Assembly: GCA_001804285.1 (NCBI GenBank) | Contig: MHFR01000053.1 | Span: forward strand, 79,857-143,856 | Length of the DNA stretch: 64,000 nucleotides | Direction: 5' to 3' | Origin: Candidatus Danuiimicrobium aquiferis | GTDB lineage: Bacteria; Omnitrophota; Omnitrophia; Omnitrophales; Danuiimicrobiaceae | In this document: one piece after another, positions 1 to 34,672 of the stretch | How positions within the stretch are numbered: position 1 is the stretch's first letter | Layout of the letters: every line of letters begins with the position of its first letter | The notes under the pieces: generated by a model | What the model was told of the DNA's origin: nothing | Seen by the model: only the letters and a program-made list of their open reading frames with translations | Databases searched by the model: none | Program-made: the position numbers and the translations under genes

Positions 1-100
1 CGGATATCAACCATCGCAAACATCACCGTCAGCACGCTTGTATAAATTCCAACGACAAGAAGTCCGAACATCGAAAAAATCGAAAAAACGAACGCACCAA
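1..100 (-). other. Hydrophobic (transmembrane-like) segment of the giant protein at the window edge
   Basis: Translation is KKLGLGAFVFSIFSMFGLLVVGIYTSVLTVMFAMVDI, and the ORF continues beyond position 1. Confidence 0.5.
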
Positions 101-9100: not shown

Positions 9101-12100
9101 TGAGGATATCCATATCTTGCGCATTATAATGATCAAACCCCGCAATGGTCCCGGGGCCCCAAATGTAACTGCCTTTAACGTTGATCGCGAGAATTTTGTG
9201 GCCGATCTTCTTCCTTAGAAAAGCCGGCAACCGCTCGCGGATAATTTCGATGCGGCCTCTTACTTCGTCTTTGGCTTCATCCGTCAGGCCGTGCCAATAC
9301 CAGTTCCGTTTTTCCAAATCTTGTTCAATGTCTTTCATCGGACGGCCGATTTCGCGCTCTTGCGGGCTTCTCCCTTTAAGGCGAGGCGCCATATACCGGT
9401 CGTGCTCCGGCATGTCTATCAATTGACTGAGTTGATCGTCCAACGCAGCGCGCAAAATAAAATCCTTATCTCCGTCCAACAAAGTCATGAGCGCTTGATA
9501 CCCTCGCTCAAGCTGTCCAAACATATTAAGATTCTGAATCCCCATCTGTGACAGCGTCAGGCCGGCTTTGAGCGCCGCCTCTATTTCCGTTTTTAAACTT
9601 TGAGCGATATCAAGAACTTCGCCGTGAACATCTTCCCCTTGGCCCGCCCGTTTGGCTAAATCCGATGCCCGGTTCGCATAATTCACGGCGCAGGAGGAGC
9701 ATGAGGTAAGAATTTCCGCAATCGCCGGCGCAACGTCAGTCAGTCGAGACCCAAACCGCTCGATCATTTCATTTAAAATTTGCGCTTTTAAATCATTATG
9801 CTTTTCACCGCGAAGTTCGCCTCTCGCCCCCACTAACAACCCCAACTCCGCTTCCAATTCCGGAAGATCCGATTCCTCTGCCTGCCTAATCCGTTCGAGC
9901 ATCTCCCTCGCAGCAATTTCGGCACTGAACACTTTTTCGAGCACCGCCTTGATTCGATTGGAATCACTCAATCCTCTTTCCGCGATTTTACGAACCATCT
10001 CGTCATAAGTTGCCTCGTCTTTATCTGCTTCCAATTCATTCAGTTCTTTTATGATTTCATTTTCCGCCATAAACCTTTCATAATCCCCTGAGGTTTGATA
10101 GCCGGAATCAAACTTAACTTCTTCTGCCTCAACCAAGTAAACTTTTTTTCCGTTTTTACGCGCATTTTCCATTCCGATGGCACCGATTTTTTTCAGCTCA
10201 TCCGCGCTCACTTCTCTCAGTTTAAGGTTCTTCAAACGGATGGCGTGTTCGTTTGTATGGACATTGACATAAATAGCATTCGGATCGGCTCCGATATGCT
10301 TCTCTGCGTCCGGATTGATCTCAAAAGAAAATACAATAATGTCACCGGTCGGCAATTGAAGACCTTCCCCCCCATCGTAAGAAAGAAGGGGCACTTGAGA
10401 CGCATAAACACCCTCACCAAAGGCGTTTGCAACCCCCGGGTAAATTACAATTTCTCCGCCTTCGACAATTTTCGACTTATCAATCCCGGAAACGTGATAG
10501 ACTGTTTTATTCCGACCGGATAAGAAATCGATTGCACGCATTAATTGATTTCTATACTCATCTTCCATGTTTGTTGCTATTTGAACCAAGGACTCCAGTT
10601 CCTTCGCTAATTCATCAACAGGCATTGTGTTATACGTATTAAGTAAAATTTCTAATTGCACGTGAGCGCGCAAACCCTTCAATTTTCGCTCAACCCGAGC
10701 CGCGTCTTCGCCTCGTCCCGTGCTTTGGTAGTATTCAATTAATTCCTTATATTTAGCCTCAGCCCCCGGCCAATCCCAGTTTTCGCCGCGCGTTTTCGTC
10801 GCCTGTCGATCCGCAATTTTTTCAATATTAGCGAAAATGCGCTCCAATTGCGCTGCCTTCTCTCTGGCCATTTGGGTTCGCAAAGCAGTTAGTTGCGTCT
10901 GCAATTCGGTTTTTAATTTTACATCCAACCCTTCGATTCCGTCGAGCGCAAGGTACCCTGCAATGAGCTGATCAAGCACGCCTGATGTTTCAATTCCCAT
11001 TTGAGGGAGTGACAATCCGGCTGCCAATGCCGCTCCGATTTCTGATTTTAAATTCTCCGCGACTTCGCGGGCTTCTGTCGCCACATTTTCGCCGGCGGCT
11101 GCACGATCCTTCAATTCCTGTGCGCGTTTGGCATAATCAACAGCACAAGATGAACAGGAAGTCAGAATATCTTCAATCGCCGGTGCAATTTCCGAAAGTT
11201 GATCTCCAAATTTTTCAACAAGCGCTCGCAAAATTTCCGCTTTTTGATCATTCGCTTCTTCGCCGCGAAGCGCACCGCCTTCTTTCACAAGCTCTCTGAG
11301 TTCCGCTTCAATGGATATAAGGTCCGCCTCATTTGCTTTTTTAATCCGATCGATCATCTGATCGGCAGCCACTTGCGCTACCGTCATTCGTTCTGCAAGG
11401 CGGCTGTCACTCATTGTTTTCAAAGCACCCTGAGAACCCGACTCTGCAGAAGATAGAGCCGCCATAATTGCCGGCGAAATCCCTGAAAGCGCCTGGCCGA
11501 ATTTTTCTTTGAGTGCATTTAAAATTTGTGCCCGGCGGTCGATTTGCTGACCACCAGAAAAATACGCCTTTAAAAAATAGTCTAATTTCTTTTGAAATTC
11601 GTCTAATCGATCTTGTTGTAATGTCTGGATTTCCTTGACGAGTTCCGCAACTTTTGCATCCAGCTCACGATCGGGATAGGAAATACCGTTCGCAATTTCT
11701 GTTCCGTTTGAGTCATAGAGCTGATATTCCACCTTCTTTGAGACATCGCGCTCCATCGGCCCGGTCGCTCGAACCACAAAGCCATTTTCGGAAAGAATTT
11801 GTCCCAACCTCGGAATGGCTTTCTTTGCGTCTTCCGCGGTATAATATTTTGTATAGATACCGTCAATCAGCACATTCGCCACAATAACCATATCGACTTT
11901 CCCCACAAGGTCGGCACGGCCGGCATTTTTCAAGCCTTCGTTCACATGAAATGCATCCGCAAGCGCGAATTCCATTTGAATTCCGGGCAAGGTTTCTTTC
12001 GATAATTGTTTGCGCGCAGAATCAATATATTGTCGGTTGTTATCAAATCCGATCATGACAACGTTCCCATATCCGGAATCCCGGAGAGAACGCGCAAGAT

Positions 12101-15100
12101 CAAAGGTCGTGGGCGCACCTTTTTTCCCGATTCCGTAATCGGCAATGACCAGTAAATCATTTTTGGACTTTCCCTGCTGCCGGCGCAGTTCCTCAACGCG
12201 AGCGATCATATCCCGATGAAGGGGCGACAAACGTCCCTGCCATGTCACCCCGGGTGTTTGATCAGAAAGCGAATCTTTTTCACCGACGAGCCGGACAAGT
12301 TCATCAAGACGGGCCCTTAACCGGCTTAATACATCCGCAGATTCAATTCCAAACAGTTGCGAATTTTTCAAAATCTGGTCATAAAGATCGCGGGCAGCCT
12401 CCAATTTTCCTTCTTCGGCCAATTGATTCGCTTGTGTCACATTTTGAATATTCAACGGGTAATCTGCCGGCACAGGTGCTTCAGTCTCACTCGCATTAAT
12501 GTCATCCCCACGAAAGTGGGGATCCAACTGGATTCCCGCCTTCGCGGGAATGACAGAATTCCGGACTTCGGCACGTTTGGCTAACATTTTGTCCGCCAAA
12601 GTACTCTCGCGCGTTCCGATTAATACCTGGTGAGAACCACTTTCAAGGTTACGCGCTTCGGAGCGAACAGCCTCAGTAGCCCTTGTTTCTGCTCCTTCCA
12701 CCAATTTAAACGGAGCAATCGCCGGAATTTTGACTGGAATACTGATCGCAAAGGTGGTGCTTTTTTCTTTTTTTCCTGTTTCCGGATTAATCACCTCACC
12801 CGAATCAATTTCAAGAACACCGTTATATTTCCCGATAACAGCGCGAACATTTTGAAGTCCCTGCCCCCTCCCCAAGGCCCCTTTCGTTGTCAGCGGAATC
12901 CCGCTCCGGATCTGCCGCAAAACATCCGCAGACATTCCTTTTCCGTTATCTTTCGCAACTAATCGAATCGATTGTTTTCCTTCTTCCGAAAGTTCGAATG
13001 TCGCTGAAATTTGAATTTCAAAATCGTCTTGTCCTGCCTTTTTTGCATCCCGTGCATTCTGAATTAAATTCGTCAGCAACACATCCAAATCCATCACGGC
13101 AAGCCCTGAATCCAACCCGATCTCCCAAGTCATTCTGACATACGGTTCTCGCCTTGCCCAATTAAGCAAAATGTTTAATTCCTCTTCTTGCGGCAATCTC
13201 TGACCTGTTTCCAGTCTTTCAAGCGTGTCCGCAAATCTTTTTGTTTCGTCGAGCGCACGCTCTGTCCAATCAATATATAGTTGGTCGTTCTCCTCGCTTT
13301 GAATCTGGTATTTTTTCATGAGCGTTAAAACAGCTTCGCCAAATTGCTCTGCTTCCCGGATTGCCTGCTTCGTCACCTCGATTAACACGATTAAATCGTC
13401 TATATATTCCGGCTGAAAATGGGTTTCTGTATTAACCGAACTGATCGTCTGCAACAGCATTCTTCCGTAATCAATCGCCTGAGCGCCTTTTGGTTTGAGC
13501 TCTTCATATCGGGCTCTGTCTTCCGGCGAAAGCGCCTTCTTCTCAAATCCGAAATAACGCATATTGGTAGCGGCCTTCCAAATATGACTTAAACGATGGG
13601 TAAAATCTCTTTGCGGCCAGCTCATATATTCGATAATTTCTCTCAACCGAACCTCATTTGCTCGAAGCGCTGCATTTTTATATTGATCCCGTTCGGTTTC
13701 GGGAACCAACGTATCAATCAATTGTTTAAACCGGTCTTTGGGTGTGACAATTATTGAAGGACTTTCAGCCACCGTTGTCCGGCTCTCCGATCTTGCTGTC
13801 TGCTGGACTTGACCTTCCCGCAGTTCCGAACGAGAAGTCTGTTTTTTCTGCCACTCATCAAGGTTAATCACCATTGTGTATAATTTTTTTCCATCCACCG
13901 TGTCTATTGAAGAAACTACCCGTGCAGTATGATAACGCCAAAGCTTGCGGCCCTGTTCTGTCACCGAATTAATTTGAACCTCCGTCAACCCCATGGTCAC
14001 GAACCGCTCAAGAAAACGGATTGCCAATTCATTTGCGACGGTTGTGCTTCTGCCCGCTAATTCGATGGGAAACGAACGTGCCGAATGAATTTGTCCTTTA
14101 GCAATGACGTGTTCTGGCTTTTTGGGATCAACCGCATATTCATAACGATGAGCGCCTACAAGTTCGCCCGAAGGTGTTTCAATATAGTCAACAAAAGTAT
14201 TCGGACGCAGACCTTTTAAACGGTCACGTTCGAAACCAAGAAAATCATTGACCCGATCAAAAAGAAATTGATTATCAACCTCTCCAATTTTCCAGCCACC
14301 TTGATCGCTCGTGCGCGCCTCCGTCCTTGGTTGAGCGGTCAGATCAGTCAAGGACGGAGCGCCGGTTGTTTTGATTAAATTCGCTTGGGAATTATTTTTT
14401 TCGAAGCGCTGCTCCGAACGGAATTCAGATCGCGGAAGTTTTTGGATGGCCCGGCAGTAAAAATTTTCTGCCGCGGGCGCCGCGGAAAAATTTCCATCGA
14501 CAATGTCAGAATTATGATCAATAAATTGAATTTCATTCGTATCGTTTTCAAACGCCGGTAAAAGGCTTAACGAGGCATCCTCTAAAATAAAGTGGACCTC
14601 ATTTAATATTTGAGCCGCCAGGACAGCGGCCGGATTGCTTTGTTTTTCTTCCTCCGCAAGGGCCGCTGCTATTTCGAGTCTTTTTAGAACACGGTTTTTG
14701 TTTTTGAGAATGCTTTGTCCGTTTACCGATAATGAAATTTGATCTCCGTCAATCTCGAGCAGGTTTAATTGATTGAACAGCAAATCATAAAGAGCTTGAA
14801 CGGTCTTTTCTTGTTTTAAAACTTGTTGGCCGGATTCGGTGAAAGAAAATGTCCGTCTGAGCAAATCTTCAGCTGTGTCGGGAGAAGACGCAAGCAACAT
14901 ATCTATCATCCTATTTTCTCCAGTTCCTATCGGATTTGCCGCGTCCGGAGCTTCAACAGCAACCATCTTGAGAATCTCCATACGCTCGGGAGTTTCCGGG
15001 GCAACCAATAATGTTTGGATCCCACGCGCAAAGGCGGCAAGGTCCGCTCTCGCCTCCGTGCGAGCGGCAATGGCAGCGGTTTTGGTATCAGCGGAAGCAG

Positions 15101-18100
15101 GTTCATAAATCCTGACGTATGATGATTCCTGTTGACTATCCATAATCGGAGGATCGAACGGGTTAAGATTCCGCAACTTTTCGAACTGATCGATCCTAAG
15201 CCCGCTGCCCATAAATGCTTCGTTGAAGACCATGACCAATTTCGTGTGTCCTGCAAATTCAATCATTTTATCCGTAAATTGGCGGCGGAATTGTTTGATC
15301 ATCCGTTTGGTCCTGGCCAAATTTTCCTCATCGCCAGGCTGAGTATAATAAAACATCACAAAATCTTTATCGCTCCATGGTACCTGAAACGCATCCTGAG
15401 GCGCTTCTGAGTAATGAAAACGCAAGGGGGCAATGATCCCTGCTTCCACAGCCCGGTCATAGAGGAATTGGCCATCACGATGAAATGCGGGATCGATCTC
15501 CACGGCTGTCACTTCCATGCCGAAAACCACGTGAGCCACCAAAGAAACAATTAAGTTCGGCCCCGAACCCATATCTAACAAATGTTTTCCGCTCAAGTTC
15601 CCGTACCGGTCGGATAATTGTTGAAATGCTTCCTGCAACATGTCAACGGAAGTCGACCCGTAACGGGTTTGATTTGCAGTCAACCGTCCATCTTCCACCA
15701 GCAAAGACATCTTTAAAAGACCTTCGACCGTCCGCATTCGATCTGCCAGCAGCGAATTGGGTGCAGTCACCGAATTTGCAACCTCTCCCACCCTGGGTTC
15801 AGCAGTTCCAGAAATCATCGCCTCTGCGCGGGCTTGAATGGCATCCCGAATCTTCGGCTGATTTAAGAAATGCCGCAGGGTCGGGCCGGCGTTGATATCA
15901 TCAAGCTGGGTAAGAAGCGATTGTTGCGGAACGAAAAAGATTTTCCAGATTTCGCCGCGGCCGGTCGTTTTCCCTGTTTCGTCGGTTTGCTGTTTGTCGA
16001 GACTTTGAAAATGGTTAACTTCACCTTCTGAAAGGGACGCATCCAACGTTTCTTTTGTTTTCTGAATCATGGCAACTTCTTCCGGCGTCGCATGGTAAAT
16101 ATAAATCGTCTTTTTTTCCTGATCCTTCGCTCGAGCTGCGGAAAATTCTCCATCATGACCGATACGTTCCCATTTCCCTTTTAATACGTAGCCCGCTGGG
16201 AAACCCAATTCTTCGACTAATTCTTTCTTGATCGCCTGGTCATAGCGGAAATCCTCGGATACGTGACCGCCATAAATATTTGCTGTGCGCTGCGCCGGAT
16301 CCTTATTTGTACGCTCCAACATGATAAAATTCCCGTCCGGCGTCCGGACAAACGCATTCGCCACCCGATGGAGAAGCTGTTTTCCTTCCGAACCGTCATT
16401 TTTTGCCTTCACCTGAACAACGCCGTTTGGCCCGTAATATAAATGTGCAAGGTTCCGGTCAAGAGAACCGAGAACTTCATCCGCTTGGGTGACGACATCA
16501 ATCATTTCGCCGCTCAATTTAACCTGCCCGGCTTGAATTAAATTCAAAACAGCGTCGACATGAGCCGCAGTCAACGGCGTGTCATTTTTCGGATTGGCTA
16601 TAATTGTTTCTAACTGAACCTTGACTTGTTTAGCCGTCACCCTCGCTTCCGCACGCCCAGCAAAAACAGAATCGGGGACAGGTTCTGGTTTCGTTGATGC
16701 AGAACCTGTCCCCATTATTGAGGCGAGGTTGCGCTGCTTCGCACGCTGGCGGGCAATTTTGAGAACTTCTTTAATTTGCTGATACGGAAGCCCTTTGGTT
16801 TCTGCTTCGATTTTTCGGATCACGGCATCATCCCCGACAAGTGTTTGACGTGCGTCGAGAAATTGTTCATACACGGCCAAACGGTCAAGCAATGTTTGAG
16901 CGGGAAGTTTCTCAAGCTCTTTTGCTTTCGCCTGAATTTCCTCAAATGAAAGCTCTGCGGGTTCCGCCGTTTGTTCGATCACACCTTGCATATCCGGCAC
17001 CAGCGCGAGCGCGGTGGCAAGGTTCGAATTGGAAACGCCGTTGACGCGGCTGACTAAGCTGCCGACGGATTCAGCGTCGATTTTGCCGCTTTTCCACATG
17101 TCTTTGAGGCCCTCTCCAAGGACTTCAATCTTTTTCGACATGAGCGCTTTCAGCTTACCGAAATAATTTGAATTGAAGGATTTGAGTTCCCGTTCGAGGG
17201 CTTGACGGAGGTCGTTGTCATTCCCGCGAAAGCGGGAATCCAGAGACTGTAGATCCCCGATTAAAGCATTCGGGGATGACAAAGAACCCTGCCCCGCGTC
17301 TCCTGCCCCTCCCTCCTGTTCCTTCCTCAATATCTGCACAAGCGCGTCCACATATCTTGTGTAAGAACCGGCTTCGGTCACTCGCCCTTCGGCGATGGAA
17401 TTCTGGATAATCCGGTCGCGCCAGCGTTTGAGGCTGGGTGTGAGTTCTTCGGTTTTAAGAGACGCGGCCATTTTCGCGGCATAATCTTTTGCGAGCGCGT
17501 CCCAGAGGCTTCCTTTGAAATATTTCATATAGGACATATTGCCGCGCATGACATTCATGTAATTCTCTTTCGTCCCGATCTCGCTGATTTTGGGCGCGAT
17601 GAGCGCGTAAGAAATACCGGCTGATTTCATTTTTTCTTTGATGCCTTCCGAATGGAAACCGCCGGTAACGATCACCGCGATCTTCGCGTTTTGACGGTCC
17701 ATGGTTTTAATAACGTTTTGGAAAAGCACTTCGTCACGCTCGAGCGCAAGTTCGTAGAAGCGGAAGTGCGGCTGGAAAAGAGTTACGAGGTCACTGGACA
17801 CTACGTCACTCGTCACTGGTGTAAAAAAAGGCGGGTGCTGTAACGCAAAAATAGTTTTGGGGTTTTTGTCATCCCCGTGCAAACGGGGATCCAGCCGGAT
17901 TCCCGCTTTCGCGGGAATGACAGAATAACCTCTTCGCAATGACGCACTATCTTTTTCCGGTGACTGGTGACCGGCGACTAGTGGCTTCACCTCTTTCCAC
18001 TGTTCATGCGTAATTTCCAGTTTCGCGAAATCGCGGAAAAGTTCCAAATCATAGAAACCGGAAACCAGTTCTTTCTCCTCTGCCGTTTTCGGAAGGAATT

Positions 18101-19778
18101 CTCTCAATTCTTTTTCGAGCGCTTCAAGTTCGTCAAACAACTTCGTCCCTTTAATCGAAGAAAGTGTCCGCGCATGTTTCGCCGTCGGTTTTAAAATATC
18201 CGGGATATACGCATCGAATCCGTATTTCCTCGATAGCTCCTCAACGCGGTCAACGAGCGCGCCTTGTTTGATCTGCCCGATTTTATACATTTGAATCATT
18301 TGGCCGGTCGTGATTTGTTCGGCTTTCGGAAGTTTCGGAAGGATTTTCGTCTCAAATCCGCGGATAAAATAATTCATCGCCACGTCAAAACCTTCGTCTT
18401 GAAAACGTTTTTCGTTTTCTTCGGCAGTCAGGATCTTGGAAAGTTCGGGATAGGCAGTAGAAAAACCCCTTACATCTCCTCCCCCTTTGTGGGGGAGTCC
18501 TCCTAACATCCGCCAAAATACGCGTCGGACTCGCCGCGCTGTTTGGCGAGAATTGGCGGATCCGCCATCCTGTTGGGCGGAGACTAAGGTGGGGGGTAAT
18601 GTCCTATTATCACCCCCATCCTTTCCTTCCCCCATCAAGGGAGAAGGAAACCTCAAAGAAAAGGGGACAGGTTCTGGTTCAATGGAGTCAAAACCTGTCC
18701 CCTTTTCTGCCTTCCATAACCGCTCCAGGCCTTTCGCATATGTCATCAAATCGATTTCGTCTGTTTTGAATTTTTTTTGGGAATGAATGAATTCCACAAT
18801 TGGGTTGGCCTGTAAAACCCCCTCACCCCAACCCTCTCCCCGAGGGAGAGGGTTAGGGTGAGGGTGAGGGCCTTTTCCCTTTTGATTTTTTTCTTCTAAT
18901 CTTTTCTCCAATTCCGCTTCCACCCTGTCCAGTTCCCTTAAAATCTCCGGCTCGTTCCTGGACGCTTCCAAGAACGCTTTCTTGTTTTCCTCGTATAGCT
19001 TCTTCTCCTCGATTCCGTAATAGCTCGAGTCAAATTCTTCATTAAGAATAGATGCCATTTCACCGCCGGAAAGTTCACCGCGCCCGACATATTCTTTCAC
19101 TACTTTCTGTTTTAATTCCTGATCGGGAAATGATTTGAAATAAAGGCTGTCCAATCGGCCGGCACCGCCTTCGAGGAGCGTAGGGGCGGGTTTGAAACCC
19201 GCCCCTACAAGCAGTTTCTGGATTTCCCGGATGATTTTCGAAATATTCGTTTCCGAATCATAATTCGTATGCGCATCCTGGAGGTAGAGGATGAGTTTTG
19301 GGGCATCGACAATAGACACTGGGACACTGGTCCCTGGTATGTCCCCGCTTGCTGTCATTCCCGCATGCTTCAGGTGGGAATCTATGCGTCTGGATGAAGA
19401 AAAGGGGACAGGTTCTGGTTCAATGGAGTCAGAACCTGTCCCCTTTTCTTTCTCTGATGACTGGTGACTGATGACTGACGACTTCTTTCCCGGCACAAAC
19501 GATTCCACAAGACTGCCGAGCTCTTCAGGAAGGCTGAGTGAATCAATGATTTCTCGAGGATTCACTTCCTTAATCCCGTGGCGAGGGTAGGCGCCTTCAA
19601 GAAGAGACTCGGCATAAACTGAACGACTCGGAGTAAATGTAAAATTGGTAAGGGTAAAGGTAATGACAAGAATAATGGCAATCAAGCGACGGCAAATCAG
19701 TATACTTTTATCTGATGTATTGGCCACGGGATTTCCTTTAAAACTGTTTACAACAGTTTGTAAAAGTATACATGGCAT
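1..19778 (-). CDS. Giant multidomain secreted/membrane-associated protein. The 5' start is in the window and the 3' end lies beyond position 1. About 6,590 codons are inside the window.
   Basis: Reverse-complement translation in the frame of ATG 19776-19778 shows no stop codon down to position 3. An alternative GTG start at 19725-19727 is preceded by AAGGAAA. The track has no minus-strand Met-ORF fragments in this frame. Recognisable catalytic motifs are spread over the whole length, all in this frame. The gene is absent from the ORF track because it runs off the window edge. Confidence 0.8.
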   Translation of the reverse strand, partial: MPCILLQTVVNSFKGNPVANTSDKSILICRRLIAIILVITFTLTNFTFTPSRSVYAESLLEGAYPRHGIKEVNPREIIDSLSLPEELGSLVESFVPGKKSSVISHQSSEKEKGTGSDSIEPEPVPFSSSRRIDSHLKHAGMTASGDIPGTSVPVSIVDAPKLILYLQDAHTNYDSETNISKIIREIQKLLVGAGFKPAPTLLEGGAGRLDSLYFKSFPDQELKQKVVKEYVGRGELSGGEMASILNEEFDSSYYGIEEKKLYEENKKAFLEASRNEPEILRELDRVEAELEKRLEEKNQKGKGPHPHPNPLPRGEGWGEGVLQANPIVEFIHSQKKFKTDEIDLMTYAKGLERLWKAEKGTGFDSIEPEPVPFSLRFPSPLMGEGKDGGDNRTLPPTLVSAQQDGGSANSRQTARRVRRVFWRMLGGLPHKGGGDVRGFSTAYPELSKILTAEENEKRFQDEGFDVAMNYFIRGFETKILPKLPKAEQITTGQMIQMYKIGQIKQGALVDRVEELSRKYGFDAYIPDILKPTAKHARTLSSIKGTKLFDELEALEKELREFLPKTAEEKELVSGFYDLELFRDFAKLEITHEQWKEVKPLVAGHQSPEKDSASLRRGYSVIPAKAGIRLDPRLHGDDKNPKTIFALQHPPFFTPVTSDVVSSDLVTLFQPHFRFYELALERDEVLFQNVIKTMDRQNAKIAVIVTGGFHSEGIKEKMKSAGISYALIAPKISEIGTKENYMNVMRGNMSYMKYFKGSLWDALAKDYAAKMAASLKTEELTPSLKRWRDRIIQNSIAEGRVTEAGSYTRYVDALVQILRKEQEGGAGDAGQGSLSSPNALIGDLQSLDSRFRGNDNDLRQALERELKSFNSNYFGKLKALMSKKIEVLGEGLKDMWKSGKIDAESVGSLVSRVNGVSNSNLATALALVPDMQGVIEQTAEPAELSFEEIQAKAKELEKLPAQTLLDRLAVYEQFLDARQTLVGDDAVIRKIEAETKGLPYQQIKEVLKIARQRAKQRNLASIMGTGSASTKPEPVPDSVFAGRAEARVTAKQVKVQLETIIANPKNDTPLTAAHVDAVLNLIQAGQVKLSGEMIDVVTQADEVLGSLDRNLAHLYYGPNGVVQVKAKNDGSEGKQLLHRVANAFVRTPDGNFIMLERTNKDPAQRTANIYGGHVSEDFRYDQAIKKELVEELGFPAGYVLKGKWERIGHDGEFSAARAKDQEKKTIYIYHATPEEVAMIQKTKETLDASLSEGEVNHFQSLDKQQTDETGKTTGRGEIWKIFFVPQQSLLTQLDDINAGPTLRHFLNQPKIRDAIQARAEAMISGTAEPRVGEVANSVTAPNSLLADRMRTVEGLLKMSLLVEDGRLTANQTRYGSTSVDMLQEAFQQLSDRYGNLSGKHLLDMGSGPNLIVSLVAHVVFGMEVTAVEIDPAFHRDGQFLYDRAVEAGIIAPLRFHYSEAPQDAFQVPWSDKDFVMFYYTQPGDEENLARTKRMIKQFRRQFTDKMIEFAGHTKLVMVFNEAFMGSGLRIDQFEKLRNLNPFDPPIMDSQQESSYVRIYEPASADTKTAAIAARTEARADLAAFARGIQTLLVAPETPERMEILKMVAVEAPDAANPIGTGENRMIDMLLASSPDTAEDLLRRTFSFTESGQQVLKQEKTVQALYDLLFNQLNLLEIDGDQISLSVNGQSILKNKNRVLKRLEIAAALAEEEKQSNPAAVLAAQILNEVHFILEDASLSLLPAFENDTNEIQFIDHNSDIVDGNFSAAPAAENFYCRAIQKLPRSEFRSEQRFEKNNSQANLIKTTGAPSLTDLTAQPRTEARTSDQGGWKIGEVDNQFLFDRVNDFLGFERDRLKGLRPNTFVDYIETPSGELVGAHRYEYAVDPKKPEHVIAKGQIHSARSFPIELAGRSTTVANELAIRFLERFVTMGLTEVQINSVTEQGRKLWRYHTARVVSSIDTVDGKKLYTMVINLDEWQKKQTSRSELREGQVQQTARSESRTTVAESPSIIVTPKDRFKQLIDTLVPETERDQYKNAALRANEVRLREIIEYMSWPQRDFTHRLSHIWKAATNMRYFGFEKKALSPEDRARYEELKPKGAQAIDYGRMLLQTISSVNTETHFQPEYIDDLIVLIEVTKQAIREAEQFGEAVLTLMKKYQIQSEENDQLYIDWTERALDETKRFADTLERLETGQRLPQEEELNILLNWARREPYVRMTWEIGLDSGLAVMDLDVLLTNLIQNARDAKKAGQDDFEIQISATFELSEEGKQSIRLVAKDNGKGMSADVLRQIRSGIPLTTKGALGRGQGLQNVRAVIGKYNGVLEIDSGEVINPETGKKEKSTTFAISIPVKIPAIAPFKLVEGAETRATEAVRSEARNLESGSHQVLIGTRESTLADKMLAKRAEVRNSVIPAKAGIQLDPHFRGDDINASETEAPVPADYPLNIQNVTQANQLAEEGKLEAARDLYDQILKNSQLFGIESADVLSRLRARLDELVRLVGEKDSLSDQTPGVTWQGRLSPLHRDMIARVEELRRQQGKSKNDLLVIADYGIGKKGAPTTFDLARSLRDSGYGNVVMIGFDNNRQYIDSARKQLSKETLPGIQMEFALADAFHVNEGLKNAGRADLVGKVDMVIVANVLIDGIYTKYYTAEDAKKAIPRLGQILSENGFVVRATGPMERDVSKKVEYQLYDSNGTEIANGISYPDRELDAKVAELVKEIQTLQQDRLDEFQKKLDYFLKAYFSGGQQIDRRAQILNALKEKFGQALSGISPAIMAALSSAESGSQGALKTMSDSRLAERMTVAQVAADQMIDRIKKANEADLISIEAELRELVKEGGALRGEEANDQKAEILRALVEKFGDQLSEIAPAIEDILTSCSSCAVDYAKRAQELKDRAAAGENVATEAREVAENLKSEIGAALAAGLSLPQMGIETSGVLDQLIAGYLALDGIEGLDVKLKTELQTQLTALRTQMAREKAAQLERIFANIEKIADRQATKTRGENWDWPGAEAKYKELIEYYQSTGRGEDAARVERKLKGLRAHVQLEILLNTYNTMPVDELAKELESLVQIATNMEDEYRNQLMRAIDFLSGRNKTVYHVSGIDKSKIVEGGEIVIYPGVANAFGEGVYASQVPLLSYDGGEGLQLPTGDIIVFSFEINPDAEKHIGADPNAIYVNVHTNEHAIRLKNLKLREVSADELKKIGAIGMENARKNGKKVYLVEAEEVKFDSGYQTSGDYERFMAENEIIKELNELEADKDEATYDEMVRKIAERGLSDSNRIKAVLEKVFSAEIAAREMLERIRQAEESDLPELEAELGLLVGARGELRGEKHNDLKAQILNEMIERFGSRLTDVAPAIAEILTSCSSCAVNYANRASDLAKRAGQGEDVHGEVLDIAQSLKTEIEAALKAGLTLSQMGIQNLNMFGQLERGYQALMTLLDGDKDFILRAALDDQLSQLIDMPEHDRYMAPRLKGRSPQEREIGRPMKDIEQDLEKRNWYWHGLTDEAKDEVRGRIEIIRERLPAFLRKKIGHKILAINVKGSYIWGPGTIAGFDHYNAQDMDILIIVEDNIEESVDIHLTDEEKREIFGDSDWQTGKLEIKVMGAGKAKPSAQFNNEMNRMISAKHSGVLLFGEDYFENISTQNFALKKLFDLLGAALIEYGKFLSARLSEKDGALLAQYRQLKIEYADLYEESKTQIEQVISALEARMKAQRLAHLRIMKRLFEIGLAAEFLVRTLTPERLAQFRKATDFGPHRFAPHLAGVTLSQFLTKGVPESVFEHAQELEELIVEDPGQIMDSFLAMYLNALKDYVGDQTADQATQGIIGKIEHSDELSRSEVRAELSALVSEGGPLHGAERNDYKAKILEALLRKFGSQLNEIAPEIVAILTSCSACAVDYAKRAQALKDRAAAGENVQKEAVDVGRNLRDEIDAALTAGLNLEQMGIENADMFGQLIAGYEALPSLIPADEDPNLKAALQEQSDRLREMFREVLPAAPATQTAGRRSEVRKTGEEIAVPSTEKFAEGTRQPAEKRQIPKKQPRMVVHGDVHGELDGLKEDLRQAGLIDENGNWIGGDAVFVQVGDVIDRGPKSKEAIEFLRRLKRQAQQAGGDVVRLIGNHELMLLEGMLGDDDALFMWWRNLPTEQRAVFEEFRDDPQRFRAAIREVYGEIVDQMLEDIMNDHLKAAEQLHGEVFTHAGARSKIRKQLIKEIAQKLGIDPSQVTEKQIADHINEILKQAISGKNFSHAIFGEDGIFWNRGVMDSVDAGKMRQIFGHTPEADSPVVASPNASRVNVDVGLYERYGGGRGFLEIDSDGNLVAHRKNQAGEWEKESLGNKDGGVEEKSSTAEATKTAEVVLPLASQNRTQSNPETARKMERMLEGLLAAALALQGKTVSEGDLRDIEKLLNELQQQTIEANDPQVAFAWAVINFIRVAQSRGDLTDVREQLHSASNRVAGRYAKKIEEILSAFSSGESISAEYNDLAAKVADDLMSNIQDISLSDFDGYLYVMKHQDLTIWGTLAKIFQVIIKALEKYPEPSKAFGTTMAEQRKILEAIRRELVKKLADQAKSKAGPLPGSTKTDVVAPVKTSSVAAMPAQKEMRDEPENPLHPRGSLTEPTPELDENKGREVNELDLDSLKPGDQVLIRSSTHDLEYVLERTADGRFKVWMRGRPGGYYLVHPENIQVLGKLSIGKMFFMPYYNWYPSDGALMPARIGQDWGSEAVKILVFPNSEMVPADAGGRSEVPGAGTSRVLQGAQFDGDDRTTKRRDELIAQGVKKTQAANQAIEEARQSGIELLRGLQKGDRIEDGESGNRYEFDGRDLILLDDDGRKIDSAVKSVYGIKRSAEGRAVKDGQGHFVFEFAPDGSAVSLGMRARVLTEVQETGPQAAQTPLDERSEARIMAMPGAGPLGADMVRAELQAAAGILFDMIDDLDFIDGVSGNELRAGGYRYQLARHPQTGELVIIIASDQAGALGVLSAQTQAELDRIHGFLNILIAAQALVARTPALKNDPAALAQAIKSLSPVTHTASDLAPPASSKSASASSTLQTKPATQIPSQQITVREAINVRTRMKKINQDGLRASKQLSRMTPRERVRLIAHTMLNREPSETEIDVFQGCEIGVQKLSEFPEIGADFLKANGIRDHYAGYIHLTAEAVLYLRENGVFQTSSTQGFMNDPGTYGPLRIQTLDGTQENYFRAVGSYAFLTQNINHPGGRIERPMKKTEFHESIHHRAGGKTDQPSIERPDVDEMNGLEELQAYFGMNLRANGTVDTNFGNASLDTALGYVRPDQKDGARQAIQAVRRLAQILPGRDVYHIIGRTRSFGELGVLADRTRSEIREMFRPGFSDSEIDHAIQFGFDRPGELAVENIRTEIENGVYLRHDTDDPVRLQRFANHYIGLVLGYLLSQAGPAESRLLQELFDINQKANPRLYEAVRSGLKQWFGFSDTETVDDQILWDRVAEEFRKSAAQTRTELFDEARLTGGVSRPVAVAGTRNEMRSIPVESSTAPDEALRPLPGPRSSEAHLPPVAASTPSGGALGSRSGAWSDEVEKQVKAGQPALQNAGWKALFSGWLQLIAGAVDFAEYFSDENPNHQYTIPFVHQNSGTIREIQGTERRALEQIQSKIKEEIGKNTSQYRDQIVRRYNHTEFQNFLNRLLSHPGLVKVSSGEKFKLVWRMLAMSPADLRDQNFENLLGRFAKLDDQNFTARNIKTTIQAFVEEIHNVKIMEDGIIRSPVDPNVSLPVRAKPLKAVAATGNEMMPEQLIDENDILAALEEIREIEEEEDSVIPASTQQTGESAVLMGGKAGISAKGGSAFGGQLLDPRVHGDDTKFRAEARSVAPTPQGDDLYLDDKELSAFSPASSRAEARLEFGMPGQESIKAGDLSSIRSKVRVSRAEARSPVQDMPPAEVRKMMVGLIMHQFKTLIDGAETSILALIRSHSIGNHDNDNKLLTNLKTNIQLARDFISEFDPILKERRIWIARYGEFNKIFSIFNTLGISEKEKLRALSPEETAYLEKLINFTALHQKLSEQLLKFETLVGDLGVFLEGRNVLTEDHDLFKRAKDLVKSVGWIVEEIKTPVAARAEVRAEFSGSALKTYRYELINMTGEELRREAIRTLRFGSLAEKDRENLTKLLRSLRAREDILYARRADGIYRGARGVDWSLPQKNWVIDILVRARRNEILLQVRSEVRGMGSWFGLGETKDIEGIPSRNDLKTILANESVYLVENVKPGDPAFLILISPTLTLPLDLISGVEKARWKDYLEKLLSQTPLTFADQQFWKNAAGVILPGVTVSKDYFEAIAKEAGITAAKLREVLGIPEDTGKMIALSTQLRKAQHPHRMLMEEVFHVLENDAFSQEIKAMPDRDKGTAGLIIETVNDFLQLMFTSPFAYDQIYSEYTDWSDTEKLALQKRYLVDKDFDPNRNIRGILNELLNDIRQGESVESVLVTDLLLRGVTESGSKAILIQYLNVLLGREKFSQYQKDKDLFPDFSTQKIRETIQTYARSETREEEWLRQETEKRIYEEKTPDEIVKFYEKLKRNKKFMQALKRNDLEGVEDALASKKLGLGAFVFSIFSMFGLLVVGIYTSVLTVMFAMVDI
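2309..2443. repeat. Composite MITE-like palindromic element inside the giant ORF (GTCATCCCCGTG..CGGGGATC + GGCGGATCCGCC...TTGTTGGGTGGA + CGCGGGAATGAC)
   Basis: Terminal inverted repeats GTCATCCCCG / CGGGAATGAC. It translates in-frame as ...DSVIPASTQQTGESAVLMGGKAGISAKGGSAFGGQLLDPRVHGDD. Confidence 0.75.
6850..7690 (-). other. PPP-family (calcineurin-like) Ser/Thr metallophosphatase domain (giant protein)
   Basis: MVVHGDVHGELDGL...VFVQVGDVIDRGPKS...VRLIGNHELMLL gives the GDxHG, GDxxDRG and GNHE signature triad. Later IFGHTP resembles the conserved His region. Confidence 0.75.
7925..8310 (-). repeat. Intragenic protein-module repeat, copy C (ELSALVSEGGPLHGAERNDYKAKILEALLRKFGSQLNEIAPEIVAILTSCSACAVDYAKRAQALKDRAAAGENV...MGIENADMFGQLIAGYEAL)
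   Basis: About 85 percent nucleotide identity to copies at 9497..9870 and 10950..11320. For example, 8058..8170 and 11088..11200 are nearly identical. Confidence 0.8.
8950..9300 (-). other. Pol-beta-like nucleotidyltransferase domain (giant protein)
   Basis: ILAINVKGSYIWGPGTIAGFDHYNAQDMDILIIVED matches the GS...[DE]xD minimal NTase motif, with a helical region after it. Confidence 0.5.
9497..9870 (-). repeat. Intragenic protein-module repeat, copy B (...KAQILNEMIERFGSRLTDVAPAIAEILTSCSSCAVNYANRA...)
   Basis: Same module with the conserved LTSCSSCAV and MGI..L..GY motifs. Confidence 0.8.
10950..11320 (-). repeat. Intragenic protein-module repeat, copy A (...KAEILRALVEKFGDQLSEIAPAIEDILTSCSSCAVDYAKRAQELKDRAAAGENV...)
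   Basis: Same module as copies B and C. Confidence 0.8.
11330..11560 (-). repeat. Partial, Cys-less copy of the same module (RRAQILNALKEKFGQALSGISPAIMAALSSAES...)
   Basis: Matches the first half of the module. TSCSSC is replaced by LSSAES. Confidence 0.5.
11750..12170 (-). other. Second Rossmann/MTase-like domain (giant protein)
   Basis: DLLVIADYGIGKKGAPTTFDLARSLRDSGYGNVVMIGFDNN...ADLVGKVDMVIVANVL resembles a glycine-rich loop, an acidic beta2 end and a hydrophobic beta4. Confidence 0.35.
12501..12556. repeat. MITE-like element (GTCATCCCCACGAAAGTGGGGATC-CAACTGG-ATTCCCGCCTTCGCGGGAATGAC) in-frame in the giant ORF
   Basis: Two hairpins flanked by GTCAT/ATGAC. It translates as SVIPAKAGIQLDPHFRGDD. 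Confidence 0.8.
12740..13100 (-). other. GHKL / HATPase_c (histidine-kinase-like ATPase) domain (giant protein)
   Basis: N-box LDVLLTNLIQNARDA, G1 box VAKDNGKGM, G2-like GALGRGQGLQNV, and a C-terminal TTFAISIPV strand. Confidence 0.65.
13450..13620 (-). other. Possible DHp/H-box-like segment upstream of the HATPase domain
   Basis: Segment REIIEYMSWPQRDFTHRLSHIWKAATNMRYF contains a His in a helical context about 150 aa before the N-box. It diverges from the canonical H-E-L-R-x-P-L. Confidence 0.25.
15200..15660 (-). other. Class I SAM-dependent methyltransferase-like domain (giant protein)
   Basis: Motif I-like HLLDMGSGPNLIVSLVAHVVFGMEVTAVEIDP is followed by an acidic residue at the end of beta2 and a hydrophobic beta4 region (DFVMFYY). 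Confidence 0.5.
16070..16400 (-). other. NUDIX hydrolase-like domain (giant protein)
   Basis: Translation is QLLHRVANAFVRTPDGNFIMLERT...GGHVSEDFRYDQAIKKELVEELGFPAGY. KELVEELGF fits the Nudix box REuxEExGu with R->K, and the spacing to the upstream G is near consensus. Confidence 0.5.
16660..16720. repeat. Degenerate copy of the GGGGACAGGTTCTG...CAGAACCTGTCCCC element in-frame in the giant ORF
   Basis: Sequence is cGGGGACAGGTTCTGGTTTCGTTGATGCAGAACCTGTCCCCa, translating as IMGTGSASTKPEPVPDS. Confidence 0.6.
17217..17280. repeat. MITE-like element (GTCATTCCCGCGAAAGCGGGAATCCAGAG...ATCCCCGATTAAAGCATTCGGGGATGAC) in-frame in the giant ORF
   Basis: Same family as 12501..12556. Confidence 0.8.
17868..17923. 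repeat. MITE-like element (GTCATCCCCGTGCAAACGGGGATCCAGCCGGATTCCCGCTTTCGCGGGAATGAC) in-frame in the giant ORF
   Basis: Same family. It translates as SVIPAKAGIRLDPRLHGDD. Confidence 0.8.
18470..18875. repeat. Cluster of at least five different palindromic elements, all in-frame inside the giant ORF: CCCCC-TTTGTGGGGG; GGCGGATCCGCC...TTGGGCGGAG; CCTTCCCCCATCAAGGGAGAAGG; GGGGACAGGTTCTGG...AAACCTGTCCCC at 18656..18708; CCTCACCCCAACCCTCTCCCCGAGGGAGAGGGTTAGGGTGAGGG at 18828..18870
   Basis: Each has a paralog elsewhere in the window (26735..26830, 21178..21350, 25056..25102, 25592..25686). The encoded peptide is low-complexity: ...GKGPHPHPNPLPRGEGWGEG...AEKGTGFDSIEPEPVPFSLRFPSPLMGEGKDGGDN... Confidence 0.8.
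19354..19447. repeat. GTCATTCCCGCATGCTTCAGGTGGGAATC element plus a GGGGACAGGTTCTGGTTCAATGGAGTCAGAACCTGTCCCC element, in-frame near the 5' end of the giant ORF
   Basis: It translates as ...SEKEKGTGSDSIEPEPVPFSSSRRIDSHLKHAGMTA. Confidence 0.75.
19600..19727 (-). other. N-terminal signal peptide or signal anchor of the giant protein
   Basis: From the GTG start the protein begins MANTSDKSILICRRLIAIILVITFTLTNFTFTPSRSVYA/ES. This is a basic n-region, a ~20-residue hydrophobic core and a VYA-E cleavage-like site. Confidence 0.5.
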
Positions 19779-19949
19779 ATAATTTTATATCAAACATCAC
19801 CCGTCTAAATTTCCGCAAGTTGTTTAATTTGAATAGTTTATGGATATTATTTTTGCTCGTTTTTTAGAGGAAAATTGGGGGCTGGCTTTGAGTCACAGAT
19901 TTTATTAAATCTATCAATAAATGGCGCGAAAAAAGCTCTTAAAACTTTC
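19779..19949 (-). promoter_or_regulatory. AT-rich intergenic region upstream of the giant ORF, and a putative promoter or leader
   Basis: It is the only non-coding stretch between queG and the giant gene. AAGGAAA and GGTGA Shine-Dalgarno-like sequences precede the candidate starts. Confidence 0.3.
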
Positions 19950-21155
19950 TTATTTCCTAAAGTTTTCTATCACGATAGAGGCGTTTCTTAAAAGCTGCCT
20001 GCGAGTTGCACGCGAAATAGCGGAGTCGGAAAACTTCTCTTTATATTCTCGATTGGTTTTGATGGCAAGTAACTCATTCAAATCAAGGCGGGAACCGGCA
20101 CCGGAAGTCGCTTTAAATTCTTTCCAGCGGGTTTCTTTCTGCTTCGACGTGTAAGGACAAACTTCCAAACACCGGTCGCACCCGAATATCCGGTCACCGA
20201 TCTTGGGCTTCAATTCTTCGGGAATCTCATTTTTATGCTCAATCGTAAGGTAAGCAATGCATTTACGCGCATCCATCGATTTATTTTCTCCGATAGCGCC
20301 TGTCGGGCATTGATCAATACATTTTCTGCACCGGCCGCAATTTCCTTCGATTGGCCGATCGGGTTCCAGCTGAAGATTCGTCACAATTTCCGCTAAAAAC
20401 AACCACGGCCCGAATTCCGGGGAAATAAGCTGAGACTGCCGTCCGATAAATCCAAGCCCGGCTTCGACGGCCAAGGAACGTTCGAGAAGCGGCTTTGTGT
20501 CTACGCATGTTTCCAAATGAATATTCTTGGTTTGCAGCGAACAGGCATGCCTGTTCGCTGCTACGACATTTTTAATTTTCCCAATCAATTTATTTAATTT
20601 TTCCGAAATGATTTTATGATAATCTTTTCCCCATGCGTAACGGGCGACACGGCCGGATGGCACCATGTTCGTAGGGGCAGACCCATGTGTCTGCCCTGTA
20701 CTGCTGTCATCAAAAAAAGGGGACAGGTTCTGGTATAGCGGCATCAGAACCTGTCCCCTTTTTTTGTCAGAACTCGGGCGAACACCTGCCTCGCCGGCAG
20801 GCGGGCGCGGGGTCGCCCCTACAGTCGCCCCCCCCGTCCAATAATTCACCCCGAGAACAATCACATTTTTTGCATCCGGAAACTCTTTGAAAAATTTTTT
20901 CTGCCGCTCCGGATATTCTTCAAGATAATGCATTCCACCGTGCTTCCCTTGGCGAATCCATTCTTTAAGATAAGATTCTTCCGCAACAAGCATCCCCTCA
21001 CCCCCCGCCTGCCCGCCTGCCGGCGAGGCAGGGAATTTCCCCTCTCCCTTAGGGAGAGGGTTAGGGTGAGGGGAAATATTAATATTTGTGATTCCGCAAG
21101 CGTCGAATCCGGTATCAAGTGCGAGAGATTTGATTTGACGGGAGGTGATACTCAT
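19950..21155 (-). CDS. queG: Epoxyqueuosine reductase QueG, carrying two in-frame MITE insertions
   Basis: GMHYLEEY and RYAWGKDYH signatures. CGRCRKCIDQCP and CDRCLEVCP [4Fe-4S] motifs. Insertions encode NISPHPNPLPKGEGKFPASPAGGQAGGEG and GGATVGATPRPPAGEAGVRPSSDKKRGQVLMPLYQNLSPFF. Confidence 0.85.
   Translation of the reverse strand: MSITSRQIKSLALDTGFDACGITNINISPHPNPLPKGEGKFPASPAGGQAGGEGMLVAEESYLKEWIRQGKHGGMHYLEEYPERQKKFFKEFPDAKNVIVLGVNYWTGGATVGATPRPPAGEAGVRPSSDKKRGQVLMPLYQNLSPFFDDSSTGQTHGSAPTNMVPSGRVARYAWGKDYHKIISEKLNKLIGKIKNVVAANRHACSLQTKNIHLETCVDTKPLLERSLAVEAGLGFIGRQSQLISPEFGPWLFLAEIVTNLQLEPDRPIEGNCGRCRKCIDQCPTGAIGENKSMDARKCIAYLTIEHKNEIPEELKPKIGDRIFGCDRCLEVCPYTSKQKETRWKEFKATSGAGSRLDLNELLAIKTNREYKEKFSDSAISRATRRQLLRNASIVIENFRK
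20712..20870. repeat. GGGGACAGGTTCTGGTATAGCGGCATCAGAACCTGTCCCC element plus a CCTGCCTCGCCGGCAGGCGGG palindrome, in-frame inside queG
   Basis: Palindromic repeat-family members. They encode about 50 extra residues between the QueG GVNYW and RYAWGKDYH motifs. Confidence 0.75.
20994..21072. repeat. CCTGCCCGCCTGCCGGCGAGGCAGGG palindrome plus CCTCTCCCTTAGGGAGAGGGTTAGGGTGAGGGG element, in-frame inside queG
   Basis: Same families as 18828..18870 and 25592..25686. Confidence 0.75.
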
Positions 21156-21177
21156 GAGTATAAATCCCAGTGACCAA

Positions 21178-21350
21178 ATCCTCCGCCAAAAAAAGTGGTC
21201 GGATCCGCCAACGCTTTAGTGGCGGACAATGACCAAGGAATTTTCAAATCACAAATCTCAAATATTGGGAGTTTGTGAATTAGGATTTCTTTGGACCTTG
21301 TCCGCCACAATGCACGGCGGATCCGCCATTTTGTTGGGTGGAGGATTTGG
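21178..21350. repeat. Intergenic repeat block (GGCGGATCCGCC...TTTAGTGGCGGACAATGACC ... GGCGGATCCGCCATTTTGTTGGGTGGAGG)
   Basis: The GGCGGATCCGCC(A)TTTTGTTGGGTGGA motif also occurs at 2345..2440, 18540..18600 and 34180..34240. Confidence 0.65.
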
Positions 21351-21357
21351 TAATTAA

Positions 21358-22011: not shown

Positions 22012-22147
22012 TGTTCACCTTGGTTCTAAAATCCCAATGTCCAAGCACCCATGACCAAAGAAACCCCGAAGAATTAATGTCTCACGTTTGGATTTTGAAT
22101 TTGGTGTTTTTTGCGTCATTGCGATTTGGACATTGGACCTTTCTTCA

Positions 22148-23866: not shown

Positions 23867-23907
23867 GTTGGGACTCTTGGATCATTACATTATTTGTTTC
23901 GCGTTTT

Positions 23908-34092: not shown

Positions 34093-34285
34093 TCCCGCAT
34101 GCTTTCCCTCGGTAAATCGAGGGCCGGCCCTGTATTTCCAGGGAGGCGGGAATCTCTATTTATAAATCCCCGCCAAGAACATGCAGGGATCTCCGCCACA
34201 AATCATTGGCGGATCCGTCCGCGCTGTATGGCGGAAAATTCGCGCATTCAACTTACGTTCCATAAGTTGAGCGCTCATTTGACTT
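34088..34285. repeat. Block of GTCATTCCCGCATGC...GCGGGAATC, GGCGGATCCG, and TTCGCGCATTCAACTTACG...ATAAGTTGAGCGCTCATTTGACTTT elements
   Basis: Matches 26824..26893 and the other family members. Confidence 0.7.
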
Positions 34286-34672
34286 TTTCATCATCCTTTA
34301 ATCACACCGATTGGCCGCATCCGGACGACACGTTTTGCAATACCGGCCTCATTTACAACTTCGACCACATCGCTGACATCTTTATAGGCCAGCATTTTGA
34401 TTCAGATCAAATTGACTTGAATTAAATCTTACCATAGCCGAATCGTTGACTCATAATAGACCTTGCCGAAACCCGGAGGGAGTTTTACATGCGTCCAACT
34501 TCAAAAAATACAGTAATGCCTTAATTAAGTATTGTGTCCCAAGTATCATACATTACACAACTAATGACTGATAAGATTTCTCTTTCAATGCTATCGGTAG
34601 AATAATAGAATGTGAATTGTAAATTAAAAGATTGCTTTAATATCCCATAAAGAAAATTAGCCTTAGGAATCA

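Follow-up and report, generated by a model that had tools for sequence, protein, structure and literature searches.

Palindromic repeats, nested in part, lie in frame in three loops of an Omnitrophota QueG that is likely still functional

How much foreign DNA can a housekeeping gene take up and still remain a gene? This question is raised by queG in a 64,000-nucleotide stretch of contig MHFR01000053.1 of Candidatus Danuiimicrobium aquiferis (phylum Omnitrophota), referred to here as the window. [quoted passage not shown] The present data, which come from short-read metagenome assemblies throughout, point to the former: queG is in good likelihood functional, its loops tolerating selfish palindromic insertions, and not a dying gene.

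The open reading frame (ORF) scores 286 bits against TIGR00276, the QueG equivalog profile (cut-off 200), and its product, which matches the structures PDB 5d08 (E=3e-45) and 5d6s, is exactly identical to GenBank OGW96102.1 from an Omnitrophica metagenome-assembled genome (UniRef name Candidatus Danuiimicrobium aquiferis); the nearest other homologues are Omnitrophota QueGs at about 50% identity. The HMMER alignments cover the protein from residue 166 onwards only, the N-terminal half being interrupted. Alignment to 5d08 pairs Asp134, His106 and Arg141 of the Bacillus subtilis enzyme, whose catalytic and cofactor roles have been described (PMC5175355), with D219 (in VDT), H180 (in DYH) and R226 (in ER), all of them conserved, and the cysteine ligands of the two 4Fe-4S clusters (C273/276/279/283 and C326/329/333) are invariant in a 50-sequence alignment, so that the homologue does keep all the catalytic hallmarks first ascribed to it. 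An AlphaFold2 (AF2) model built with 50 homologues has a confident core (predicted TM-score, pTM, 0.77), and the top 10 Foldseek matches of this model are all QueG (5d0b, 5d08, 5d6s; E about 1e-19). The gene queF, of the same pathway, lies 6 kb away. Like roughly half of the orthologues from Omnitrophota, the window protein stops just past the first part of the tRNA-binding domain; it lacks the HEAT-repeat extension (PF13646) that the remaining orthologues and the B. subtilis enzyme have at their end.

Distances between conserved motifs, measured at three sites in 73 Omnitrophota homologues, locate the extra residues. At site 1, from CGI to HG.M.YL, the window protein has 49 residues, the longest of the set, against a median of 21, and the surplus of 28 agrees with the roughly 30 reported between GI and GMHYL. 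At site 2, from GVNY[YW] to R.ARYAWG, it has 62 against a median of 24 (range 11-98), and the inserted part of about 48-51 residues bears out the estimate of some 50 between GVNYW and RYAWGKDYH. At site 3, from WG.DYH to VDTKP, it has 37 against 27, a surplus of 10, with only one homologue longer (53). Site 1 falls between β1 and the first long helix, site 2 in the extended 'Cbl-insert' loop (cobalamin; B. subtilis Tyr77-Asp104 in the numbering of the 5d08 alignment), and site 3 aligns with the loop that holds Glu125; in the B. subtilis structure, the stretch Tyr77-Asp104 forms an extended loop, and no crystal form shows Glu125 ordered (PMC5175355). Relative to 5d08, the added residues lie outside the aligned secondary structure, and the AF2 confidence (predicted local distance difference test, pLDDT) falls under 50 in two stretches alone, residues 28-49 and 110-159, where no secondary structure is predicted. 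The insert DNA would be translated as disordered peptide rich in Pro and Gly. Comparison with solved QueG structures, a check already named in the preliminary description, thus places the inserts in extended or disordered loops. One insert-encoded peptide reads GQVLMPLYQNLSPFFDDSSTGQTHGSAPTNMVPSGR.

The nucleotide anatomy of these segments (Table 1) reveals repeats nested within repeats. Insertion 2 starts with GTAG, ends with CTAC and is a head-to-head dimer of two repetitive extragenic palindromic (REP) units of a family termed B, which together hold hairpin A and the short piece D. A clean dimer with neither A nor D is found on a metagenome contig of another species (L002:3613-3680, GTAGGGGCAGACCCATGTGTCTGCCC-16 nt-GGGCGAACACGCGGGTTCGCCCCTAC), and the queG dimer has the same REPIN-type arrangement: unit 1 is identical to L002:3613-3638 (26/26), and the common allele of unit 2 is identical to L002:3655-3680 (26/26) once positions 20785-20805 are taken out. 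The excised 21 nt (CCTGCCTCGCCGGCAGGCGGG) are piece D, and the extra content of the queG spacer is the 56-nt hairpin A. The insertion is accordingly larger than first delimited, reaching left to 20671 and right to 20822 with its two GTAG-tagged REPs, which are the only family-B units in the window. Treated as RNA, it is predicted to fold as one nested structure (-97 kcal/mol, z=-6.1) with long-range pairing.

Table 1 Features of queG and of related repeats, in positions of the window
Feature	Position	Strand	Description
queG, coding sequence of tRNA epoxyqueuosine(34) reductase	19950..21155	minus	401 aa
Insertion 1 (site 1)	20994..21073	minus	80-nt composite palindrome; +28 aa, residues about 27-54, SPHPNPLPKGEGKFPASPAGGQAGGEG
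Piece D, copy 1	21011..21032	plus	GCCCGCCTGCCGGCGAGGCAGG; nested in the family-C palindrome of insertion 1
Insertion 2 (site 2)	20671..20822	minus	152 nt, about 48-51 aa, residues about 112-162
REP B unit 1	20671..20696	plus	GTAGGGGCAGACCCATGTGTCTGCCC; gene strand encodes GQTHGSAPT
Hairpin A	20711..20766	both	CAAAAAAAGGGGACAGGTTCTG-12 nt-CAGAACCTGTCCCCTTTTTTTG, 22-bp perfect stem; encodes KKRGQVLMPLYQNLSPFF
REP B unit 2, inverted	20776..20822	minus	gene strand GTAGGGGCGA(C/A)CCCGCG[D]TGTTCGCCC, 21-nt D in loop
Piece D, copy 2	20785..20806	plus	CCTGCCTCGCCGGCAGGCGGGC; within the REP B unit 2 loop
Site 3 palindrome	20534..20561	both	perfect 28 nt, GCAGCGAACAGGCATGCCTGTTCGCTGC; encodes AANRHACSL
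Family-A copies	16674, 18663, 19404, 20719, 25060, 28427, 32339, 33970; variant 30644		
Giant gene	1..19784	minus	single frame, open over 6594 codons or more and continuing beyond the left end
TGTCATTCCCGC..GCGGGAATGACA family	17215-17283, 17865-17946, 23900-23976, 30539-30600, 34085-34156, 44261-44358, 47134-47153, 53607-53731		

Insertion 1 is a family-C palindrome (CCCTCACCCC..CCCTCTCCC-tta-GGGAGAGGGTTAGGGTGAGGG), of which a canonical 45-nt copy lies at 18820-18864, with 39 additional nt between the left half-sites CCCTCACCCC and CCCTCTCCC; its predicted RNA fold has -63.5 kcal/mol (z=-5.9). The additional nucleotides include the reverse complement of piece D, so that the two D copies agree, in opposite orientation, at 22/22 nt. 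Within the window, the CCTGCC palindrome itself (CCTGCCTCGCCGGCAGG) has exactly two copies, which lie in queG in opposite orientation, and no further copy of D was found in the window or in 10 other loci examined. The claim that each insertion carries this palindrome therefore stands; its copies are nested inside other palindromes, not joined to their ends. The palindrome of site 3, a third in-frame site that had been overlooked beside the two real ones, occurs once in the window and folds with -23.4 kcal/mol. That the segments are copies of window repeats is borne out by exact matches: the arm GGGGACAGGTTCTG of the hairpin A core (20719-20758, GGGGACAGGTTCTG-12 nt-CAGAACCTGTCCCC) has 16 matches, forming 8 hairpins, against 0.19 expected, and element C (GGGAGAGGGTTAGGGTGAGG, 21052-21071), present at 4 loci, matches 2 others exactly, with 5 matches against 0.01 expected. 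The window holds 19 perfect hairpins whose stems have 10 bp or more, compared with 0-1 in shuffled sequence.

To which class do these elements belong? The MITE label does not hold. Classical MITEs are likewise small, non-autonomous, repeated and palindromic and can form in-frame fusions, but they typically measure 70-300 bp and have terminal inverted repeats around an internal region plus a target-site duplication, whereas the queG units are 21-56 nt long with neither feature. They are palindromic from end to end, REP/REPIN-like or terminator-like, and no flanking direct repeats are visible at 20670/20823, 20993/21074 or 20533/20562. The family-B units (20671-20696 and 20776-20822) show the features that define REPs, namely the GTAG tag, the imperfect palindrome (20-40 nt in GTAG-REPs) and the inverted dimer; families A, C and D and the site 3 palindrome lack GTAG and fall outside it. 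A scan of GTDB representative genomes with the pattern GTAGGGGCRNACCCNNGTGTNYGCCC returned this GTAG-REP at at least 120 loci (L011-L130), with Chloroflexota, Acidobacteriota, Bacteroidota, Firmicutes, Planctomycetota, Cyanobacteria and Omnitrophota among the many phyla, and with the peptide signature VGA.PCV.P / GQTHGSAPT. Among the matches listed, the variable stem positions are complementary in 149/157 copies, against 1/8 expected. In L014 and L034, two of these loci, the roughly 600 bp between paired REPs code for a response regulator and a Dps-like protein and not for a REP-associated tyrosine transposase (RAYT).

Hairpin A fits the pattern of a GC-rich stem followed by a U-tract, with -37.2 kcal/mol and then U7 on both strands. 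The copies at 25060, 28427, 30644 and 32339 lie directly past stop codons or between convergent genes, and those at 16674, 18663, 19404 and 20719 (4/9) lie in frame within long ORFs. Across the family the stems contain 2 mismatches in 224 positions and the loops, of 10-12 nt, diverge by about 50% between pairs of copies, and in the window the arms are always paired, never single; near-invariant stems and paired arms are unlike simple neutral decay of a transposed copy. DNA-uptake sequences were considered as a model for these arms and rejected, since the 16 arm matches are 8 pairs with no single arms. No exact hairpin A was found in the GTDB species-representative genomes, which means that the window genome and its close kin lie outside that collection, and a scan of JGI metagenomes returned 6 loci only. 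Rfam gave 0 matches over the whole window at the gathering threshold and, at a relaxed threshold, only generic hairpin look-alikes (miRNA precursors), so the elements match no RNA family described to date.

Of the three coding-strand frames of insertion 2, only the one in use is free of stops, two of three are open in insertion 1, and the inferred insert units (45, 39, 21 and 30 nt) each have a length divisible by 3; if the three sites are taken as blocks independent of one another, our own rough estimate of the chance that the ORF stays open is (1/9)(2/9)(1/3), or about 1%. Four protein alleles are represented on at least 11 contigs, which come from different samples; each allele keeps the 401-aa ORF and the invariant residues, all differences between the alleles fall within the inserts, and no recovered assembly has a broken ORF. 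Specifically for selection, the QueG cores of two orthologues that both carry long, unrelated site 2 inserts (L008 and L009) give a dN/dS of 0.078, a value that describes this insert-bearing pair and not the lineage of the window allele. The enzyme has presumably retained its activity with the inserts translated as part of it, and coupled translation would suppress the terminator activity of the in-ORF hairpin A. Translational bypass or removal of the inserts at the RNA level was also considered and rejected, as the inserts are in frame and stop-free in the frame used, a state that bypass would not call for. Precedents for bypass are T4 gene 60 and the mitochondrial 'byps'.

The alleles display a pattern of their own. 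Over about 6 kb of the polX-nth-queG region (21 kb in the case of the public re-assembly L001), seven assemblies agree except for single-nucleotide polymorphisms (SNPs), all of which lie inside palindromic elements (20771..20812, 21034 and 19191). The L001 re-assembly has 6 differences within 42 bp (20771-20812), in REP unit 2 and piece D; of the six differences between two assemblies, five fall in the region of D copy 2, and the window base at 20812 is unlike that of all six other assemblies. This cluster may reflect gene conversion between REP copies, hypermutability linked to hairpins, or Illumina or assembly error. An Avd-like gene lies at 50559..50930, but a diversity-generating retroelement was rejected as the source of the cluster: the changes lack adenine specificity, a reverse transcriptase was not seen, and the site is atypical for a variable region.

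The loop that bears insertion 2 is occupied well beyond the window lineage. In L008 and L009, where the synteny polX-nth-queG is kept, the site 2 inserts match intergenic repeats of their own surroundings, over 80 nt at 100% identity to a copy 900 bp upstream in L009 and over 30 nt at 97% in L008. Further site 2 inserts are family-A-type hairpins with differing distal stems (L010 and L137, AAAAAGGGGACAGG..CCTGTCCCCTTTTT), and several orthologues, P0049 and P0032 among them, have C-type inserts with PHPNPLP..GEG peptides. Hairpins of family A sit at site 2 of QueG in the window, P0050 and P0079, which are three distant lineages. Close relatives supply the empty counterpart: P0019 is filled with 98 aa and P0014 has 13 aa at a core identity of 97% (aa), and P0015 has 64 aa against 15 aa in P0051 at 91%. 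In nucleotide terms P0019 and P0014 share 93% identity, and P0019 has 255 additional nt bounded by TGTCATTC...GGATGACA. Judged from these sequences, copies of local repeats together with empty sites in near relatives mark the site 2 loop as a recurrent hotspot, filled independently and recently in many lineages. The search for insertion-free orthologues, which had been proposed at the outset, thus succeeded in P0014 versus P0019 and yielded none close to the window lineage. The ends of the P0019 insert are of the type of the abundant TGTCATTCCCGC..GCGGGAATGACA family (Table 1), a family with the peptides VIPAKAGI / SRFRGNDN that occurs at intergenic as well as coding positions.

Nor is queG the only gene affected. 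The giant gene beside it, which is open throughout its 9320 aa in the L001 re-assembly, holds its three copies of hairpin A within its first 3.1 kb; within its first roughly 1100 codons lie, in frame, these three copies as well as a family-C element (18820-18869), a GTAG..CTAC palindrome (19180-19208) and several TGTCATTCCCGC..GGGAATGACA elements. In the alignable L002 orthologue the elements sit at other positions. The gene rlmN (58283..59416, minus), for a radical-SAM methyltransferase, contains a perfect in-frame GTAG..CTAC palindrome (GTAGGGAACGGTcgcgACCGTTCCCTAC) at 58936-58963, exactly where RlmN has 9 aa more than PDB 6fz6. In-frame insertion is therefore genome-wide and not specific to queG. 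A k=13 repeat census, too noisy to compare genic with intergenic load, was used qualitatively only.

Several observations weigh against a functional, insertion-tolerant queG. The hairpin at codons 131-148 is a strong terminator structure (-37 kcal/mol stem, U7), and unless translation suppresses it, most queG transcripts could be truncated. The roughly 50-residue disordered insert at site 2 could likewise disturb the enzyme, as the loop supports the tRNA-binding domain and lies near the His106 equivalent. No close insertion-free relative of the window lineage is available, the next homologue being 50% identical, so that selection on the window allele itself is not measurable. On the side of the elements, family D is known from two copies, both in queG, and no RAYT or other transposase was found among the called genes of L001 or 20 scanned ORFs of the window.

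These points bear most directly on the reading that queG is being inactivated, in which the inserts, chiefly the terminator-like hairpin and the one in the Cbl loop, have already abolished expression or activity and the ORF is open only because the events are recent. Hairpin A does have all the features of a strong intrinsic terminator, with intergenic copies at the 3' ends of genes, QueG is dispensable in Escherichia coli at normal growth (PMC5175355), and polymorphism confined to the inserts is what recent neutral decay from hotspots would produce. Against this, several nested events have kept the frame, with insertion 2 in its sole open one, the invariant residues are all intact, the ORF is whole wherever it was recovered, and the insert-bearing queG of other lineages is under strong purifying selection. 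The giant gene, open despite three A hairpins, argues that these are inefficient as terminators in a translated context, and in E. coli a closely following ribosome represses intrinsic terminators (PMC4824070). Inactivation is therefore unlikely, and of the two outcomes first proposed the evidence from loops, frame, alleles and orthologue dN/dS favours tolerance. Could the inserts instead have been co-opted, the hairpins acting as translation-dependent attenuators or the peptides or RNA regulating QueG, with selection keeping them across Omnitrophota? The near-invariance of the A stems next to divergent loops, which includes the queG copy, the recurrence of family A in the same loop of the window, P0050 and P0079, and the single nested fold of insertion 2 (z=-6) would all fit. 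However, most orthologues have no hairpin at site 2 and close relatives are empty there, the families that occupy the loop vary by lineage, and the three copies of family A are unlike one another in distal stem, position and entry frame, in keeping with independent gains; recent copying or hairpin-dependent mobility explains the conserved stems equally well, and co-option appears improbable.

Two further explanations concern the segments as such. Mis-joining of repeat-bearing reads into queG is a natural worry with short-read metagenomes, all the more as the differences between assemblies are confined to GC-rich palindromes, with six inside 42 bp in one re-assembly; yet the same architecture, 1-6 SNPs apart, recurs in at least seven assemblies from different samples and assemblers, the inserts are in frame, and many unrelated assemblies of Omnitrophota contain analogous ones, all of which makes an artefact very improbable indeed. 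That the segments are ordinary lineage-specific loops resembling the repeats by chance, the outcome named in advance as refuting the insertion reading, can appeal to the natural variation of loop length among QueG homologues, but it is contradicted by exact 20-nt, 40-nt and 26-nt matches at other loci, where 0.01-0.2 were expected, and by perfect palindromes, and retains next to no credibility. Finally, there is a bolder extension, that the Cbl-insert loop is a phylum-wide landing pad and the in-ORF hairpins are latent terminators that enforce transcription-translation coupling by cutting transcripts when ribosomes lag; it is unlikely to be correct, and if true it would amount to a regulatory layer made of mobile terminators.

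Most probably, small palindromic repeats of a non-autonomous kind have settled in three permissive surface loops of a functional QueG. At site 2, a REP dimer would have arrived first, after which its spacer would have gained the 56-nt hairpin A and the loop of one REP the 21-nt piece D. A 45-nt family-C palindrome, likewise bearing D, would have entered the loop after β1 at site 1, and a 28-nt palindrome the Glu125-equivalent loop at site 3. Purifying selection would then filter the insertions such that in-frame, stop-free copies in tolerant loops survive, and this filtering would give the appearance of a hotspot across the phylum. By analogy, the GTAG-REPs are probably mobilised by a single-strand transposase of the RAYT or ssDNA type. 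The nesting of D in two palindromes and of A in the dimer spacer suggests that hairpin DNA attracts insertions, which, if true, would add to the hotspot effect of selection for tolerant loops.

How does this compare with known systems? The closest are the GTAG REP dimers (Di Nocera et al. 2013, PMC3733652) and REPINs (Bertels & Rainey, PMC3116915), with which the queG elements share the 26-nt imperfect palindrome headed by GTAG, the head-to-head dimer with a spacer, the lack of target-site duplication and, for the intragenic GTAG REPs, insertion wholly inside ORFs of known proteins with 20-80 aa added. Several species, among them the PVC bacterium O. terrae, carry intragenic GTAG/CGTC REPs; these form dimers and clusters that encode 20-82 aa, with several inserts per gene, nesting in other small palindromes (GTAG-23 of T. 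roseum), and tRNA pseudouridine synthases among the host genes (PMC3733652). The present case differs in its Omnitrophota host, in that no RAYT was found in the 64-kb window, in a spacer that carries a terminator-like hairpin of another family, and in the repeated occupation of the same loop across a phylum. Another relative in kind is the Rickettsia palindromic element (RPE; Ogata et al. 2000), described in PMC10969869 as palindromic selfish DNA that is translated in frame within Rickettsia housekeeping genes. As far as that account extends, RPEs share the in-frame state, the fold-compatible surface sites and the many unrelated genes per genome; they are, however, single elements of about 100-150 bp in Rickettsia-specific families, whereas the elements here are 21-56 nt long, of several families and nested, have no apparent sequence relationship to the RPEs, and reside in a free-living or episymbiotic host rather than an obligate intracellular alphaproteobacterium, so that RPEs are an analogue set apart by size and lineage. 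SPRITE of Streptococcus pneumoniae, which appears in the list of the same source, shares with family A its repetition, GC-rich stem, A/T runs and mostly intergenic copies at 3' ends; going by that entry, family A differs in having 4/9 copies in frame within ORFs and invariant stems with variable loops, and no sequence relationship is apparent. Two genome papers on Omnitrophota leave such elements unmentioned. In-frame palindromic DNA in housekeeping genes is thus already known, and what is modestly new is the phylum, the nesting of several families, the translated terminator-like hairpins and the phylum-wide hotspot with empty-site alleles.

Other features of the window may be recorded alongside. 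Larger palindromic MITE-like elements fill intergenic spacers at 21168..21356 (between queG and nth), 22034..22136 and 34192..34286; their ends are CCAAATCCTCCGCC ... GGTGGAGGATTTGG with inner GGCGGATCCGCC motifs, and one is publicly called as a 69-aa ORF. Within a type IV pilus cluster (PilC-like 47418..48776, PilB-like 48809..50518, secretin 51196..53034, PilM/O-like 53822..55983) lies a gene for a four-helix protein of the 23S-rRNA-intervening-sequence or bAvd-like type (50559..50930, minus), near which no reverse transcriptase was seen.

The results extend intragenic selfish DNA to Omnitrophota, a phylum known almost solely through metagenomes, and they account for odd Pro/Gly-rich segments of low confidence in its proteins, such as PHPNPLPKGEG, GQTHGSAPT and KRGQV..LSPF. 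Recognising such inserts helps to avoid mis-annotation, as they break homology searches. The repeated, independent filling of one QueG loop furthermore offers a natural map of tolerance to large insertions, and the translated terminator-like hairpins raise a testable question for these bacteria, namely how strict their coupling of transcription and translation is.

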